Shown: positions 8,419 to 27,821, counted from the first letter of the stretch. The stretch: 32,000 nucleotides of DNA from Sinorhizobium meliloti (GCF_017876815.1 NZ_JAGIOS010000003.1:1170001-1202000), one strand, 5' to 3'. Notes: generated from the sequence alone by a model not told the origin. Numbers and translations are program-made.

Positions 8419-8514
8419 TGGCGGAAGAGAATGGGAGTCGAACCCACCCAAGACAGCCTCGCTGCCCCACCCGGATTTGAAGTCCGGACATGCCACCGGG
8501 CATGATTCTCTTCC
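8419..8514 (-). tRNA. selC: tRNA-Sec (anticodon UCA), 96 nt including CCA
   Basis: Minus-strand sequence GGAAGAGAATCATGCCCGGTGGCATGTCCGGACTTCAAATCCGGGTGGGGCAGCGAGGCTGTCTTGGGTGGGTTCGACTCCCATTCTCTTCCGCCA. It has an 8-bp acceptor stem (GGAAGAGA/TCTCTTCC) and a 6-bp D stem (CATGCC/GGCATG) with a 4-nt loop. The 6-bp anticodon stem carries the loop CTTCAAA. There is a long variable arm and a 5-bp T stem with loop TTCGACT, giving the bacterial 8/5 Sec architecture. Confidence 0.93.
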
Positions 8515-19173: not shown

Positions 19174-22100
19174 ACTCTAGCCTCCTCGGGCGCCGTCGAT
19201 GATTCGATATTGACCAGGAATGCTTTGTATTCCGGCGTTTCGATATTGGCGTCACCGACGAAAGGCGCGAGCGAGTTGGGGCCGAGGCCCTTTTTCGCCG
19301 AGCCGGTGAACCCCCAGTGAAGCGGAATGCCCACCACATGGACCGGCTTGCCGTCGCACATCAGCGGCCGGATGCGCTTGGTCACCACCGCCTTCGCCTT
19401 GACCGAACCACGCTTCGACCACACCCGGACCCAGCCGCCGTTTTCGATATTCTTCTCCTCTGCCAGTTCCTCGGAGATCTCGACGAAGAATTCCGGCTGA
19501 AGCGCGGAATTCACGCGGTTATGCTTGGTCCAGTAGTGGAAGTGTTCCGTCAGCCGGTAGGAAGTAGCCGCGTAAGGGAACTCGTCCGACAGCCCCATCT
19601 GCGCCACGTCCGTCTGAAAGACGCGGCTGACCGGGTTGCCCCGCATCTTCGGATTGAAGACGTTGGCGACGGGGGATTCGAAAGGCTCCATATGGGCCGG
19701 GAACGGCCCGTCCCGCATCAAACCGCGTGAAAACAGGCGTGCAGTCCCCTCCTGGTTCATGATGAACGGGCCGATTTCGTCCGGCTTTGCCGTAGGAGCA
19801 ATATCGGGCACATCGTAGCCCGCCCACTTCGTGCCATCCCACTCGAGCAGCTTACGTGAGGGATCCCACGGCTTGCCCTGCAAATCGGCCGAAGCACGAT
19901 TGTAGAGCGTGCGGCGATTAAGCGGCCAGGCGAATGACCAGCCGAGATAAGCGCCAGTGTCGTCCGGATCGTGGTTGTCGCGGCGGGCCATATTGTTGCC
20001 CTGCTCGTTGAAGTTGCCGGAATAGATCCAGCAACCGCACATGGTCGAACCGTCGTCCCTGAGTTGCGAGAAGTTCAGGATCTGCTTGCCGGCCGCGACC
20101 TGCACCTTCATCGGGTTGGCAGGATCCATGAGGTCCGTCAGTGCCCGACCGTTGATTTCCTTCGCCAGCTCCTCCGGCGTAGGTTCGTTCGGATCGGCAT
20201 AGTCCCATGACAAGTTCAGGATCGGATCGGGGAACGCGCCACCCTCGTTGCGATACATCTCCTTCATCCTGAGGAATATCTGGGCGACGATGTAAGTGTC
20301 GTGCTTTGCTTCGCCGGGGGGTGTTCCACCTGCCCAGTGCCACTGCAACCATCGGCCCGAGTTTGTCAGCGAGCCCTCTTCCTCCGCAAAGCAGGTCGTG
20401 GGCAGCTGGAACACCTCGGTCTGGATGGATGCGGTATCGACAGGGTTGAAGTCGCCATGGTTTTCCCAGAACCGTGCGGTCTCTGTGTCGAGCGGGTCCA
20501 TCGTGACGAGCCACTTCAGGTTCGACAGCGCCTTGGTGTTCTTGTCCCGGTTCGGGAAGGCAAGAAGTGGGTTGAAGCCCTGGCAGATGTAGCCATTGAC
20601 CTTGCCGGCATACATCAGCTCGAACACGCGAAGCACATCATAGGCCGGCACGTCGAGCTTGGAGAGGTAATTGAAGGCCCAGTCGTTGTCGATCCGGGCG
20701 GCATCCCCCCACATGGCCTTCTGGAAGGAGACCATGAACTTCCTGTAGTTCTGCCAGTAACTTGTCTGCCCTGGACGCAATGGTTTGAACTGGCGTGTCG
20801 ACATATAGGTCGTGAAATCCACGTCCTTTTCCGTCGGCATCGTCAGATACCCCGTGAGCAGATGCGACATTAGACCGAGGTCAGTCAGTCCCTGGATGTT
20901 GGAGTGGCCGCGAAGCGCGTTCATGCCGCCGCCGCGCACGCCGATATTGCCGAGGATGAGCTGCAGCATGGCCATGGCGCGGATGTTTTGCGAACCGCTG
21001 GAATGCTGGGTCCAGCCGAGCGCATACATCGACGTCATCGTCTTTGTCGGAGACGAGCATTCCGAGATCATCTCGGCAACCTTGAGGAACTTGTCCTTGG
21101 GCGTGCCGCAGATCCGTTCCACCATTTCCGGCGTATAGGGGGCGAGGTGCGCCTTCAGCAGATTCCAGACACAACGCGGGTGCTGGAGCGCCGGGTCAGT
21201 CACGACGAAGCCGTCGTCGCCGAGGACATAGTCCCACGTCGACTTGTCATAGTCGCGCTTTTCCGCGTCGTAGCCCGTGAAGAGGCCGTCCTGGTAGCCG
21301 AAGCCGTCCTTGACGAGATAGGAGGCGTTGGTGAACGCCTTCATATAGTCCCACTGCACCTTGTCGTTGTCGATGCAATACTTCATCACCCCGTTGAGGA
21401 AGGCGATGTCGGTTCCCTGACGGATGGGAGCGTAATAGTCGGATACGGACGCGGTGCGGGTATAGCGCGGATCGACCACGATCAGCTTCGCGCCCCGCGT
21501 GGCCTTCGCCTCGGTCACCCATTTGAAGCCGCAGGGATGCGCTTCGGCCGCATTGCCGCCCATGACGACTACGAGGTCGGTATTTTTGATGTCGGTCCAG
21601 GAGTTGGTCATCGCTCCACGGCCAAATGTTGGGCCCAAACTGGACACCGTAGGGCCGTGTCAGACGCGCGCCTGATTATCGAAACCGACTATTCCCAGAG
21701 CCTTGGCGAATTTGAAGGTCGCCCAAGCCGTTTCATTGGTGGTCGCCGACGCGGCGAGCATGCCGACCGTCGTCCAGCGATTGACCGGAACGCCTGCGGC
21801 ATTCGCCGCGACGAAATTGGCGTCGCGGTCATCCTTCATCAACCGTGCGATGCGGTCGAAAGCATCCTCCCAGGAGATACGCTCGAACTTATCCGAGCCC
21901 GGCTTGCGGTGCATCGGATACTGGAGACGGGTCGGGGACTTCACGAAGTCCTTGAGCGCCGCCCCCTTGGGACAGAGCGTACCGCGGTTGGTCGGATGAT
22001 CCGCATCGCCTTCGATGTGAATGATGTCGGCAGCCTCACCCTTGCGGAGGTCGCCCTTCGAATAGATGATGACGCCACAGGCGACGGAACAGTAGGGACA

Positions 22101-24256: not shown

Positions 24257-25462
24257 GTGACGGAAACGATCACAGGGATTCTTTCGATGACGCGACACCT
24301 AAGCAGCCTCGCTTTCATGGAGAATTTTTCCAGTAAGCTCGAAATGGCACTGAACAACTTGAGCATGGCGCAGTTCCCCCCGAACGCGCGTCGCACAATG
24401 CGCAAGTTCACCTCTACCGAAGTTGCCACCCTGCTGGGCGTAACCGAGGCCTATATCCGCCAGGTTGCCGCCAAGGAACAGGGCCCTGAGCCCGAAATCG
24501 CCAACGGCCGGCGCTTCTACACGCTCGAGCAGGTTCTTGAACTACGTATGGCTCTTGCGGCAAACGGCCGGAAGAAATGGATGAATCCCCGCCGGACAGG
24601 CGATGAGCAATGCCAGATCGTTGCGGTCACCAACTTCAAGGGCGGCTCCAGCAAGACCTCTACCACAATCCATCTCGGTCACTATCTGGCACTCAAGGGC
24701 TATCGCGTGCTGGCGGTCGATCTCGACCCCCAAGCATCTCTCACCGCGCTCCATGGTAGCCTGCCGGAATTCGATTACCGTGGCGGTGATACACTTTTCT
24801 CAGCCATTCGTTTCGACGATCCCGTCCCGACGAAATCCATCATCCACAAGACCCACATCGTTGGTTTCGACGTCATCTGTGCCGGCCTCGAACTGACCGA
24901 GTTCGAGACGGCCGTCGCACTCGAGATGCGGCGGTCAGCAGGAACCGGTTTCTTGCTTCGCGTTTCTCAAGCTCTGGAGCAGGTCGCCGATGACTACGAC
25001 TTCGTCCTTATGGACTCGGCTCCGTCGCTGAACTTCCTGACACTTTCGTCGCTGACCGCCGCGACTGGGGTCATCATCCCGGTTCCGGCACATATGCTGG
25101 ATGTGGACTCGACCGCAAAGTTTTTGGAGCTTGCCGGGTCGTACATGCAGATCCTGAATGAGGTGGGGACCGCCGCTCAATGGGACTTCGCCAAGTTCCT
25201 GATCACAAAGTTCGAGCCGAACGATCATCCGCAAGCGAATATGTCCGCGCTGATGAGACAGGTGTTCGGCGAGGATCTGCTCCTCAACTCCGTCATCAAG
25301 TCGACCGCGGTGGCCGATGCTCTGACGTGGAAGCAGAGCCTTTACGAGGTTCAGAGGTCCCGATTTTCGGCGCCGAAAACCTACGACCGCGCCATCGAGT
25401 CGATCAATGCTGCCAATGCTGAACTCGAGGGCCTCTTCTGGAAGGCATGGGGGAGAGAATGA
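24257..25462 (+). CDS. repA: Plasmid partitioning ATPase RepA (ParA family)
   Basis: Deviant Walker A KGGSSKTSTT, VLAVDLDPQASLT, and an N-terminal HTH-like segment. The start is uncertain (GTG at 24257 or ATG at 24287). The stop overlaps the repB ATG. Confidence 0.9.
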   Translation: MTETITGILSMTRHLSSLAFMENFSSKLEMALNNLSMAQFPPNARRTMRKFTSTEVATLLGVTEAYIRQVAAKEQGPEPEIANGRRFYTLEQVLELRMALAANGRKKWMNPRRTGDEQCQIVAVTNFKGGSSKTSTTIHLGHYLALKGYRVLAVDLDPQASLTALHGSLPEFDYRGGDTLFSAIRFDDPVPTKSIIHKTHIVGFDVICAGLELTEFETAVALEMRRSAGTGFLLRVSQALEQVADDYDFVLMDSAPSLNFLTLSSLTAATGVIIPVPAHMLDVDSTAKFLELAGSYMQILNEVGTAAQWDFAKFLITKFEPNDHPQANMSALMRQVFGEDLLLNSVIKSTAVADALTWKQSLYEVQRSRFSAPKTYDRAIESINAANAELEGLFWKAWGRE

Positions 25463-26460
25463 GCCGCAAGGATTCCAAGGGCCTTTTTGCCAATGTCCTG
25501 GGACAGCTGGAAAATTCTGCAGAGAAGGGCGGGATGCAGCGGTCGACATCGCCACATCTTCTCAAAGTTGCAGCCGGCGTCCGTCAGATGCAGGAACGCA
25601 GCGAACTTGCCGAACGCCTTCTCAAGGATGGTGGCCAGATCGTCGAGATCGATCCAGACGAGATCATGGAATCGGCCATCCGGGATCGCTTTGATTCCGG
25701 CTACAGCGAAGCCGGTATTGCGGATTTGCTCGAGTCGATGCGCGAGCATGGACAGAGTACTCCTGGCTTGGTCCGCCCGGTTCGAGGGGCCGCAAGGCCG
25801 TTTCAGATCGTATTTGGCCGGCGCCGGCTTGCCGCTGCCAAACTCCTCGGCATCAAGTTCAAGGCAATCGCCCGGGAACTTAGCGACGAAGATGCGATCG
25901 TTCTCCAAGGGGAAGAGAACAGCAACCGCAAGGACCTGTCCTTCATCGAACGATGCCTTTTTGCGCAATCGCAGGAGGCTGCCGGCTATCGCCGCGACGT
26001 GATCTGCAAGTCCCTGAGCACCGGCAGGTCGCATATCTCCGAAATGATCCGGATAGCGGCAGCATTGCCGCGCGAGATCCTGATGCAGATTGGTCCGGCT
26101 CCTGAAATCGGACGGCGCAGGTGGATCGAGTTCGAAGTGCGCTGGGCGGCTCACCGGGAGCCCGCGAAGGTGGCGCAGTTGGTTCTGGAGCAAGACCAGA
26201 TTCAAGCCTCTTCCAGCGAGCTACGCTTCGCTGCGGTTTTTGAAGCGCTTACCAAGGCGGATGTAAAGGCTGCAGCGTCTTCCACAACCGATCTGATCTC
26301 TCATGGCCTCGTGCTTGGCCAGATCCAACACGGCAAGTCGGCTGCGAAGCTGACATTCAACAAGTCTGTGCCTTCAGGCTTTGTCGATTTCATTGCAGGT
26401 CAGATCGAAAGCCTGCACGACCAGTTCATGCAAAAGCAGAATTCGAAACAAGGAGACTAA
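25459..26460 (+). CDS. repB: Plasmid partitioning protein RepB (ParB family)
   Basis: ParB-box region HGQSTPGLVRPV...FQIVFGRRRLAAAKLLG, with an HTH further on. The ATG at 25459 overlaps the repA TGA (ATGA) and follows GGGAGAG. The track alternative is the ATG at 25447. Confidence 0.88.
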   Translation: MSRKDSKGLFANVLGQLENSAEKGGMQRSTSPHLLKVAAGVRQMQERSELAERLLKDGGQIVEIDPDEIMESAIRDRFDSGYSEAGIADLLESMREHGQSTPGLVRPVRGAARPFQIVFGRRRLAAAKLLGIKFKAIARELSDEDAIVLQGEENSNRKDLSFIERCLFAQSQEAAGYRRDVICKSLSTGRSHISEMIRIAAALPREILMQIGPAPEIGRRRWIEFEVRWAAHREPAKVAQLVLEQDQIQASSSELRFAAVFEALTKADVKAAASSTTDLISHGLVLGQIQHGKSAAKLTFNKSVPSGFVDFIAGQIESLHDQFMQKQNSKQGD

Positions 26461-26465
26461 CCCGC

Positions 26466-26503
26466 AAAAGAAAAAGGCCCCCAACGAACAAGCCGTGGAA
26501 GCC
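26466..26503 (-). terminator. Rho-independent terminator of the candidate ctRNA
   Basis: Minus-strand RNA GGCUUCCACGGCUUGUUCGUUGGGGGCC forms 7 bp (including 2 G-U) plus 3 bp with one bulged U and a 7-nt loop. It is followed by UUUUUCUUUU. There is no U-tract on the plus strand. Confidence 0.65.
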
Positions 26504-26520
26504 TTCCTCAGATTTGTAGC
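26466..26520 (-). ncRNA. Candidate repABC counter-transcribed RNA (ctRNA / inc-alpha) in the repB-repC intergenic region
   Basis: Minus-strand promoter-like TTGACT (26551..26556), 17-nt spacer, GATTCT (26528..26533). About 55 nt downstream is a strand-specific intrinsic terminator. Position, size and orientation match what is known for repABC operons. Confidence 0.6.
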
Positions 26521-26615
26521 AAGATCGAGAATCGCATTTCCACGAATCACAGTCAAGAGTCCTTGGCACCGTTTTTGGTGAGCTGCTTTCTTTTGCCTAA
26601 TCGAAGGTGAAGGAA

Positions 26616-27821
26616 ATGGAAAGTGGAAGTGTGACGACGCCCTTTGGGCGGCGGTCGATGACGCTTGCCTTGTTGGCAGGCCAGTTCATCTCCCGCGACA
26701 TCGAACCTGGAAAGTCGGTCGACAAGTGGAAACTGTTTCGCTCGCTTTGTGCGGCCAAACGCCGGCTCGGCATCAGCGATCGGACGCTGGCCGTTCTGAA
26801 CGCGCTGTTGAGCTTCTATCCGGAGAACACGCTAAGCGGAGAGACCAGTCTGGTCGTCTTTCCCTCGAACGTTCAGCTGTCACTGAGAGCTCATGGGATG
26901 GCCGAGGCTACGCTCAGAAGGCATCTGGCCGCCCTCGTCGATGCAGGCCTGGTCGCTCGCAAGGACAGTCCGAACGGCAAGCGCTATGCACGCAAGACTC
27001 GCGATGGAGCGATCGGCACAGCATTCGGCTTTTCGCTCGCACCGCTTTTGGCCCGCTCCGGCGAAATAGAGCGACTCGCGGCCGAAGCCGAGGCTGATCG
27101 GATCGAGCTGCAGCGGCTACGCGAGCGACTGACGCTCTGCCGCAGAGACATCGCCAAGTTGATAGACGTGGTGCTCGAAGAACTGCCCGGCGACTGGACG
27201 TCTCTGCAGGAAGATTTCCGAAGCCTCGTCCAGGCTATACCGAGGACGCCCGATATCGCTGATCTCACCGCTTTGGTAGAGGCGTTCGAAACGCTGCGCG
27301 AACAGGTGGCTAACCAATTGCAAACGCGCATAAAACTCCAAGAGATGAGCGGCAATCCCGATCAAACTGAGCGGCACAAACAGGAATCAAAACCCGAATC
27401 TATTATTGAACTTGAACGTTGCCCTCGGAATGAGCGGTCAGACGGCCAGGCCGGTGAACCGGCTCACGAGGCAAAAAGGGCCTTTCCGCTGGGAATGGTA
27501 CTGAAAGCCTGCCCGGAAATCATGAACTACGGTCCTGACGGTGCGGTGAGAAGTTGGCGCGACCTTATGATCGCTGCGGTTACGGTACGATCTATGCTTG
27601 GCGTTTACCCCTCGGCCTATCAGGAGGCCTGCGAGGTCATGGGACCAGAAAACGCCGGGGTCGCCGTTGCCTGCATCCTGGAGAGGGCAGGGCATATCAA
27701 CTCTGCTGGCGGGTATCTGCGCGATCTGACCGGCAAAGCGCGGCAAGGGAAATTCTCGCTCGGCCCGATGCTGATGGCGTTGCTCAGGGCGAATGGCTTC
27801 GACAGGCGGGGGGTGTTGTGA
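26616..27821 (+). CDS. repC: Replication initiator RepC
   Basis: RepC signature region RTLAVLNALLSFYPE...VVFPSNVQLSLRAHGMAEATLRRHLAALVDAGLVARKDSPNGKRYA. The ATG at 26616 follows AAGGTGAAGGA. The track start is the GTG at 26607. Confidence 0.9.
   Translation: MESGSVTTPFGRRSMTLALLAGQFISRDIEPGKSVDKWKLFRSLCAAKRRLGISDRTLAVLNALLSFYPENTLSGETSLVVFPSNVQLSLRAHGMAEATLRRHLAALVDAGLVARKDSPNGKRYARKTRDGAIGTAFGFSLAPLLARSGEIERLAAEAEADRIELQRLRERLTLCRRDIAKLIDVVLEELPGDWTSLQEDFRSLVQAIPRTPDIADLTALVEAFETLREQVANQLQTRIKLQEMSGNPDQTERHKQESKPESIIELERCPRNERSDGQAGEPAHEAKRAFPLGMVLKACPEIMNYGPDGAVRSWRDLMIAAVTVRSMLGVYPSAYQEACEVMGPENAGVAVACILERAGHINSAGGYLRDLTGKARQGKFSLGPMLMALLRANGFDRRGVL
27305..27420. other. Candidate oriV (A+T-rich segment inside repC)
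   Basis: This is locally the most AT-rich stretch of repC (taaccaattgcaaacgcgcataaaactccaagag...caggaatcaaaacccgaatctattattgaacttgaacgtt). In studied repABC replicons the origin lies within repC in such a region. Confidence 0.35.

Follow-up and report, generated by a model that had tools for sequence, protein, structure and literature searches.

Known counter-transcribed RNAs of repABC replicons

The closest described relative of the element analyzed here is incA of the Sinorhizobium meliloti megaplasmid pSymA in strains 1021 and 2011 (MacLellan et al. 2005, Mol Microbiol 55:611; SmelA103, Schlueter et al. 2010, PMC2873474), which is an orthologous locus. It was characterized experimentally in strain 1021 (MacLellan 2005, as cited in PMC2873474, PMC6090056, PMC3155836 and PMC10194956), and these papers credit it with post-transcriptional repression of repC and with plasmid incompatibility. 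RNA-seq of strain 2011 is reported to have detected incA as SmelA103, a 60-nt transcript with high coverage at pSymA positions 1351298–1351357 that overlaps the Rfam family RF00489 (PMC2873474). A further paper counts incA among five well-characterized S. meliloti ncRNAs (PMC3738161).

The type example of the same architecture is the counter-transcribed RNA (ctRNA, inc-alpha) of Rhizobium etli p42d together with its S-element (RF00489, RF00490; Venkova-Canova 2004, Cervantes-Rivera 2010). The p42d repC leader is described in PMC3155836 as switching from a large stem-loop to the S-element. On Agrobacterium tumefaciens pTiR10, the small antisense RNA RepE (Chai and Winans 2005) lies in the repB–repC spacer and, according to the account in PMC6090056, lowers repC by refolding of the leader. 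Our likening of pTiR10 to the present locus rests on this description; the Agrobacterium replicons in our alignment have the same conserved blocks. Unlike the repABC operon of pSymA, where such extras would be unexpected, the pTi operon has repD and quorum-sensing promoters.

More distant antisense systems, namely pMV158 RNAII, pSK41 RNAI, IncB/IncIalpha RNAI and R1 CopA, share the logic of a constitutive short countertranscript complementary to the rep leader, and inhibit translation or cause attenuation through refolding, like the repABC ctRNA. Their sequences and replication proteins are unrelated, so that they are analogs only and not members of the same family.

The spacer between repB and repC in a pSymA-type megaplasmid

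We analyzed a 32-kb stretch of S. meliloti DNA (hereafter the window, in whose coordinates all positions are given). According to Pfam matches and to PGAP annotation in CP050559, a record with 99.9% identity, the window contains genes in the operon order repA (ParA), repB (ParB) and repC (RP-C) (Table 1). The spacer from the repB stop to the repC ATG is exactly 26461–26615 and has plus-strand genes on both sides. In alignment A3 of the homologues, the A of this ATG is invariant and its T and G are conserved in at least 90% of sequences. A longest-ORF listing puts the repC start at GTG 26607, since it gives the longest ORF only; the conserved start is ATG 26616, which coincides with the end of the S-element and with the PGAP start in CP050559.

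Across repABC, identity is 100% with the pSymA-type megaplasmids of S. meliloti strains RU11/001 and SM11 and 97.2% with pSymA of strain 1021. The neighboring genes, selD, selB and selA as well as fdnG, fdxH and the gene for the gamma subunit of formate dehydrogenase (record CP050559), fit such a replicon. Judged by sequence identity, the replicon of the window is an S. meliloti pSymA-type megaplasmid of the RU11/001 or SM11 type.

The wider neighborhood also contains the RNA elements of a selenocysteine system. A selenocysteine tRNA gene lies at 8423–8514 on the minus strand (79.7 bits with the Rfam family tRNA-Sec, whose gathering score is 47), and in CP050559 its neighborhood comprises selD, selB and the gene for L-seryl-tRNA(Sec) selenium transferase. 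A bacterial SECIS element at 21607–21665, also on the minus strand (Rfam SECIS_3, 81.6 bits, E = 4.5e-18), lies on the opposite strand to repA and about 2.6 kb upstream of it, where CP050559 has fdnG, the gene for the alpha subunit of formate dehydrogenase-N. This is consistent with a selenocysteine-containing formate dehydrogenase encoded on the megaplasmid.

Compared with incA of strain 1021, the window represents another strain with the same flanking genes and the same replicon. Over 26420–26660 the alignment is gap-free and has four substitutions in 241 nt, all outside the ctRNA gene (Table 1); none falls within 26442–26598, an interval that takes in the promoter and the ctRNA as well as most of the S-element. 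Through this alignment the SmelA103 coordinates translate to minus-strand positions 26524..26465. A first-pass annotation, made from the sequence alone, had placed a candidate ctRNA at 26520..26466; its ends are off by at most four bases.

Table 1. Features of the repABC region in window coordinates. Mean column identities refer to 44 non-redundant sequences; the helices HL, AT, H2 and H3 are predicted.
Feature	Coordinates	Strand	Mean column identity	Basis and remarks
repA (ParA-type partition ATPase)	24257..25462	+		Pfam AAA_31, CbiA; RepA annotated in CP050559
repB (ParB-type partition protein)	25447..26460	+		Pfam RepB, ParB_N; annotated in CP050559
incA/ctRNA gene, ~60-nt antisense RNA	26524..26465	-		RF00489 match; mapped SmelA103; fold z = -3.26 (61-nt minus-strand RNA, MFE -22.8 kcal/mol)
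-35 element CTTGACT	26557..26551	-	0.95	near-invariant; TTGACT part is 26556..26551
ctRNA promoter spacer		-	0.88	between -35 and -10 elements
-10 element GATTCT	26533..26528	-	0.97	17 nt after TTGACT
5' tail of ctRNA	26524..26510	-	0.62 (computed over 26528..26510); flanks 0.87-0.97	variable, single-stranded; least conserved part
Rho-independent terminator of ctRNA	26509..26466	-	stem arms 0.87-0.89; apical part 0.79; U-tail 0.96	hairpin 26509..26470; U-tail UUUUUCUUUU 26475..26466
Anti-sequestor helix AT	26464-26473 GCAAAAGAAA / 26587-26596 UUUCUUUUGC	+		closes large stem-loop; 10-bp complementarity; 5' arm in ctRNA target
Helix HL	26494-26501 CGUGGAAG / 26537-26544 UUUCCACG	+		RNAalifold; 92.9-97.5% paired
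S-element, repC leader structure	26551..26618	+		RF00490; last three positions are the repC AUG
Hairpin H2, CACC-GUUUUU-GGUG	26567-26570 / 26577-26580	+		RNAalifold; 97.3% paired
Sequestor hairpin H3	26587-26598 UUUCUUUUGCCU / 26605-26616 AGGUGAAGGAAA	+		89% paired; covers Shine-Dalgarno region
repC Shine-Dalgarno region AAGGUGAAGGA and ATG (26616-26618)	26604..26618	+		conserved ATG; PGAP start
repC (replication initiator, regulation target)	26616..27821	+		Pfam RP-C 2.3e-71, RP-C_C 2.1e-43; annotated in CP050559
Substitution versus 1021	26441	+		in repB
Substitution versus 1021	26599	+		in sequestor hairpin loop
Substitutions versus 1021	26621, 26623	+		in repC codons 2-3

A ctRNA gene with its own promoter and terminator

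A scan of the full 32 kb against Rfam at curated thresholds returned four matches, two of which fall in the repB–repC spacer. RF00489 (ctRNA_p42d) matches 26508..26464 on the minus strand with 53.6 bits (gathering score 50, E = 8e-10, model positions 1–46), and RF00490 (S-element) matches with 73.7 bits (gathering score 47, E = 3.7e-11, model positions 1–67). Both are above their gathering scores on the expected strands and at the expected positions, and RepA, RepB and RepC are encoded around them, which bears out the first-pass assignment of the element as the repABC counter-transcribed RNA. In keeping with that assignment, the ctRNA sits in the repB–repC spacer on the strand opposite repABC, and has its own promoter followed, 50–60 nt on, by a strand-specific rho-independent terminator.

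Each of the sequence features that the first-pass annotation had listed occurs where it was said to be. The promoter-like arrangement TTGACT-N17-GATTCT is present on the strand opposite repABC as originally noted. Among 44 non-redundant replicons the TGAC of the -35 element is invariant and the adjoining C and T are nearly so; read on the plus strand, this element overlaps the 5' end of the S-element. GATTCT matches TATAAT at only three of six positions and is thus a weak -10 hexamer. That the hexamers function as a promoter we infer from how well they are conserved and from an RNA-seq 5' end that lies 4 nt farther downstream. The motif taken by itself does not exceed chance, as a loose pattern occurs four times in the window against 2.8 +/- 1.6 times in shuffled sequences, and it was not used as evidence. 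A scan for consensus promoters and terminators missed both signals of the ctRNA gene, and a hairpin on the plus strand at 26552–67 was all that it flagged. We rejected this outcome as evidence against the element, because the criteria of the scan exclude -10 hexamers with three of six matches and bulged stems. Considered as a whole, the element is far beyond chance in view of both Rfam E-values, the fold of the ctRNA and the conserved hexamers.

The core of the terminator hairpin extends from A26504-U26475 to C26497-G26482, and the hairpin is followed by the U-tail given in Table 1. The first-pass annotation had put a strand-specific terminator about 55 nt downstream of the promoter. This distance applies to where the terminator ends; its hairpin sets in about 15 nt past the start site. 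The strand specificity is pronounced. Across the homologues, 94.4% of alignment cells are paired when the helix is read on the minus strand, with compensatory changes at five pairs and a covariation score attained in none of 500 shuffles. The helix includes 218 G.U cells, and read on the plus strand only 67% of cells are paired. In all 44 non-redundant sequences the minus-strand fold is more stable than the plus-strand fold (-24.3 vs -10.4 kcal/mol), and a T4+CT3+ tail is kept in every one of them.

A hairpin with a T-run located directly after the repB stop (26460) might be nothing but the terminator of a convergent or upstream transcript, be it the end of repB or a minus-strand gene, with no regulatory RNA involved; a 60-aa minus-strand ORF (26556..26374) that overlaps the site could be taken to point the same way. 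We rejected this ORF as a gene, because its extent takes in the ctRNA and its promoter together with the 3' end of repB: it would begin inside the promoter and run across the terminator into repB. Termination of repB transcripts at the site conflicts with repABC being an operon, in which transcription of repC must cross it, and a plus-strand transcript would form only a weak hairpin, with an A-run in front of it and no U-run behind. The invariant promoter 55–60 nt upstream on the same strand likewise argues against a mere terminator, which of all the explanations considered is the hardest to credit.

Conservation among repABC replicons

Homologous loci were collected from 80 relatives of RepC with 54–91% identity, one genome per species, and aligned; our comparisons overall span 44–81 replicons, and the non-redundant set of 44 consists of replicons whose RepC is only 54–71% identical to that of the window. 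The spacer is recognizable by blastn in all 80 loci. In most replicons its DNA is 75–86% identical, compared with 54–71% for the RepC protein. Rfam searches of 20 diverse replicons recovered the ctRNA from 16 and the S-element from 19; 15 replicons have the two together, none lacks both, and the arrangement is always the same.

Conservation is uneven along the element (Table 1). From this profile, the 5' tail of the ctRNA (26510..26524) together with the apical loop (26484–26495) is the likely determinant of incompatibility specificity. A comparison with p42d gives a similar picture. Each spacer measures 158 nt when the ATG is counted, and overall identity is 77%; it reaches 87% in the promoter and 89–93% in the terminator arms, whereas it falls to 50% in the apical loop and is 73% in the 5' tail, as expected for compatible replicons. 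The apical stem of the window is 3 nt shorter than that of p42d, which accounts for an RF00489 score close to the threshold.

Two observations on individual homologues may be recorded here. In the contig of Gellertiella hungarica, the repC match is followed after about 170 nt by a copy of ar14, an alphaproteobacterial sRNA (RF02344, 94.5 bits), at 2857–2979 on the plus strand. Rhizobium sp. F40D2 (NZ_JBPWQX010000005.1) has two repC loci some 150 kb apart whose spacers are identical in alignment A1; the RepC match (1501–2978) is unusually long. This suggests that the repABC module was duplicated or that the assembly is at fault.

Helices of the repC leader

RNAalifold applied to the whole plus-strand alignment yielded just two short helices, and candidate helices were instead tested explicitly. 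The consensus helices of the S-element, which lie within 26559–26615, have 80.7% of cells paired in 73 distinct sequences and two-sided changes at six pairs, with a covariation score attained in one of 500 shuffles. In the window, four inner pairs of this fold are non-canonical and the competing hairpin H3 is the minimum free energy (MFE) structure. H3 and the Rfam S-element fold are alternatives, and either one covers the Shine-Dalgarno sequence. In homologues H3 displays one-sided changes only; with 26465–26524 blocked, the MFE structure of the leader always contains it.

The first-pass annotation had pointed to two pairings close to the repC ribosome-binding site. The CACC/GGTG pairing (26567–70 with 26577–80) is present as hairpin H2 and supported by covariation, its second pair changing from AU to GC or GU. 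The same CACC can instead pair with GGUG 26606–09 of the Shine-Dalgarno region, as in the Rfam form of the S-element, and covaries there too. The GGCA (26565–68) and TGCC (26594–97) sequences of the second proposal do exist, but their pairing is part of no supported structure. We rejected this helix, since its arms are invariant, it is absent from predicted and curated structures, and GGCA overlaps CACC by 2 nt, so that both helices cannot fully form together. The main anti-sequestor pairings, 26464–73/26587–96 (AT) and 26494–501/26537–44 (HL), had been missed in that annotation.

HL connects the ctRNA target, which contains its 26494–26501 arm, with the ctRNA promoter spacer, which contains its 26537–26544 arm. 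It shows GC-to-AU compensation at two pairs, with a score attained in none of 500 shuffles, and is specific to the plus strand through the G.U pair 26501/26537. The use of the promoter spacer by this mRNA helix explains why that spacer is conserved. For AT, the 11 tested pairs are 86% paired in 73 distinct sequences, against 46–70% when the partner is slid by 1–3 columns. Both of its arms are near-invariant; AT therefore shows no covariation, and covariation cannot confirm it. AT belongs to the MFE structure of the nascent leader. Its right arm is common to H3 as the left arm of that hairpin, which makes the free and sequestered states mutually exclusive.

These helices also bear on the idea that the spacer is a site recognized by protein at the DNA level, either a parS centromere or an operator for RepA or RepB, with the hairpin and promoter motifs being incidental. 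DNA conservation of 75–86% is above what RepC identity of 54–71% would lead one to expect, and even the ctRNA promoter spacer is conserved (0.88). This last feature is accounted for by HL. The terminator helix retains 218 wobble cells that pair on a single strand (94% of cells paired against 67%), and it has compensatory changes, of which a DNA site would have no need. In strain 2011, whose sequence is identical here, sequencing recovered an RNA that agrees in size and strand with the prediction, and the literature (PMC10194956) locates parS elsewhere. We consider a DNA-level site to be very improbable.

A predicted structure switch in the nascent leader

The effect of the ctRNA duplex on the leader was mimicked by blocking 26465–26524 during folding. 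For the free nascent leader, from 26455 to 26598, 26604 or 26620, the MFE structure is one large stem-loop (-45.1 kcal/mol) closed by 26464–73/26587–96 and including HL, in which 26599–26620 with the Shine-Dalgarno sequence and the AUG is unpaired. The blocked leader folds into three local hairpins, H1, H2 and H3, and the Shine-Dalgarno sequence is paired. Its mean probability of being unpaired drops in the window from 0.54 to 0.10 upon blocking of the target. With a shuffled target region, this probability is 0.11 +/- 0.03, and the native value was attained in none of 200 shuffles. In 70 distinct homologues the corresponding values are 0.34 and 0.13, a drop for which the Wilcoxon p-value overstates independence because the homologues are phylogenetically related; individually, the drop exceeds 0.2 in 35 of the 70, and a rise of more than 0.2 occurs in three. 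Folding with and without the ctRNA, as the first-pass annotation had proposed, is thus predicted to leave the Shine-Dalgarno sequence of the nascent leader open in one case and sequestered in the other, in agreement with the structure switch which that annotation had considered compatible with the sequence. The predicted folds also agree with the p42d leader as it is described.

The prediction depends on the length of the leader. In equilibrium folds of 26440–26670, Shine-Dalgarno accessibility is alike with and without the blocked target, and with 20–50 nt more of repC in the fold the equilibrium MFE structure sequesters the Shine-Dalgarno sequence with or without the ctRNA. The switch is lost in the long leader because of a long-range helix, 26532–43/26623–34, which dominates the long-leader equilibrium folds. 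Covariation was looked for at this helix in the homologue alignment and none was found; nascent-transcript lengths were therefore used for folding. The prediction of a switch is confined to nascent leaders ending at or before about 26620, and the switch is best read as co-transcriptional.

The same ctRNA could also act by pure transcription attenuation, through an induced intrinsic terminator upstream of repC and without occlusion of the ribosome-binding site, as has been put forward for RepE of pTiR10 and for p42d. In PMC3155836 and PMC6090056, binding of the ctRNA is said to make the repC leader an intrinsic terminator, and the window does have one terminator-like site on the plus strand, the hairpin 26552–26567 followed by ACCGUUUUUG. 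This hairpin, however, is present in both the free and the blocked predicted folds and is therefore not switch-dependent, and its U-run begins 4 nt past the stem. The hairpin that does depend on the ctRNA, 26587–26616, is followed by UGGAAAGUGG; the window has no canonical U-tract after it, so that the ctRNA-dependent terminator of the published model was not reproduced, and what this hairpin covers is the Shine-Dalgarno sequence. Attenuation and occlusion are compatible with each other, and the choice between them is the only live alternative; attenuation acting on its own is possible but rather doubtful. For pSymA we favor translational occlusion, possibly combined with attenuation as in p42d and pTiR10 (PMC6090056).

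It may be that the leader adopts states beyond these two. There are two copies of the heptamer GUGGAAG, at 26495–501 in the ctRNA target and at 26623–29 in repC codons 3–5, and each copy can pair with UUUCCAC 26537–43. Binding of the ctRNA could pass the UUUCCAC arm on to the repC coding region (helix 26532–43/26623–34) and so lock the initiation region. A sense transcript also deserves mention. SmelA102, an abundant 154-nt RNA of the small-RNA fraction of strain 2011 (pSymA 1351156–1351309), is reported to overlap RF00490 (PMC2873474). It maps to 26513–26666 on the plus strand of the window, with its 5' end inside the ctRNA:mRNA duplex region. Either processing of the duplex or the stability of a leader fragment may account for SmelA102; we found no explanation of its origin in the papers cited here. 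That the leader has additional states, and that SmelA102 is a stable ctRNA:mRNA duplex product with a function of its own, seems to us improbable on present grounds; neither the extra states nor such a function appears in the published model as it is summarized in those same sources.

A model for control of repC

We conclude that the spacer very probably comprises incA, the counter-transcribed RNA of the pSymA repABC operon, and that the repC leader with the S-element, on the opposite strand, is what this RNA targets. The identity, strand specificity and conservation of the element, like the predicted switch, are observations of the present analysis. The transcript of strain 2011 and the repression and incompatibility phenotypes are taken from the literature. 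Transcript and function in the present strain are carried over from the identical sequence of 1021 and 2011 and from p42d and pTiR10.

In the model that we favor, the conserved sigma-70-type minus-strand promoter CTTGACT-N17-GATTCT would drive synthesis of an RNA of about 60 nt, which would consist of the variable single-stranded 5' tail, the G.U-rich terminator hairpin and the U-tail, and would be fully complementary to repABC mRNA at 26465–26524. Without the ctRNA, the nascent leader would adopt the large stem-loop, with 26464–73/26587–96 closing it and 26494–501/26537–44 inside; as this structure leaves the Shine-Dalgarno sequence and the AUG single-stranded, RepC would be made. With the ctRNA on its target, AT and HL would be deprived of their left arms, and the freed U-rich segment 26587–98 would pair with the Shine-Dalgarno region, in the S-element or the H3 state. 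Expression of repC would then be shut off by translational occlusion, with premature termination added if the work on p42d and pTiR10 applies. Since RepC limits initiation, the ctRNA would set the copy number, and the same logic would make a ctRNA supplied in trans an incompatibility determinant.

Implications for repABC replicons

incA and the S-element of pSymA are already known, and there is nothing new about them here; the element raises no new question. For the window, the value of the analysis is annotation: the incA/ctRNA gene, the S-element and the repC start can be entered at 26524..26465 (minus strand), 26551–26618 and ATG 26616, respectively. The ctRNA is one layer of the control of copy number and incompatibility in repABC replicons, which carry symbiosis, virulence and chromid functions in rhizobia, agrobacteria and Brucella.
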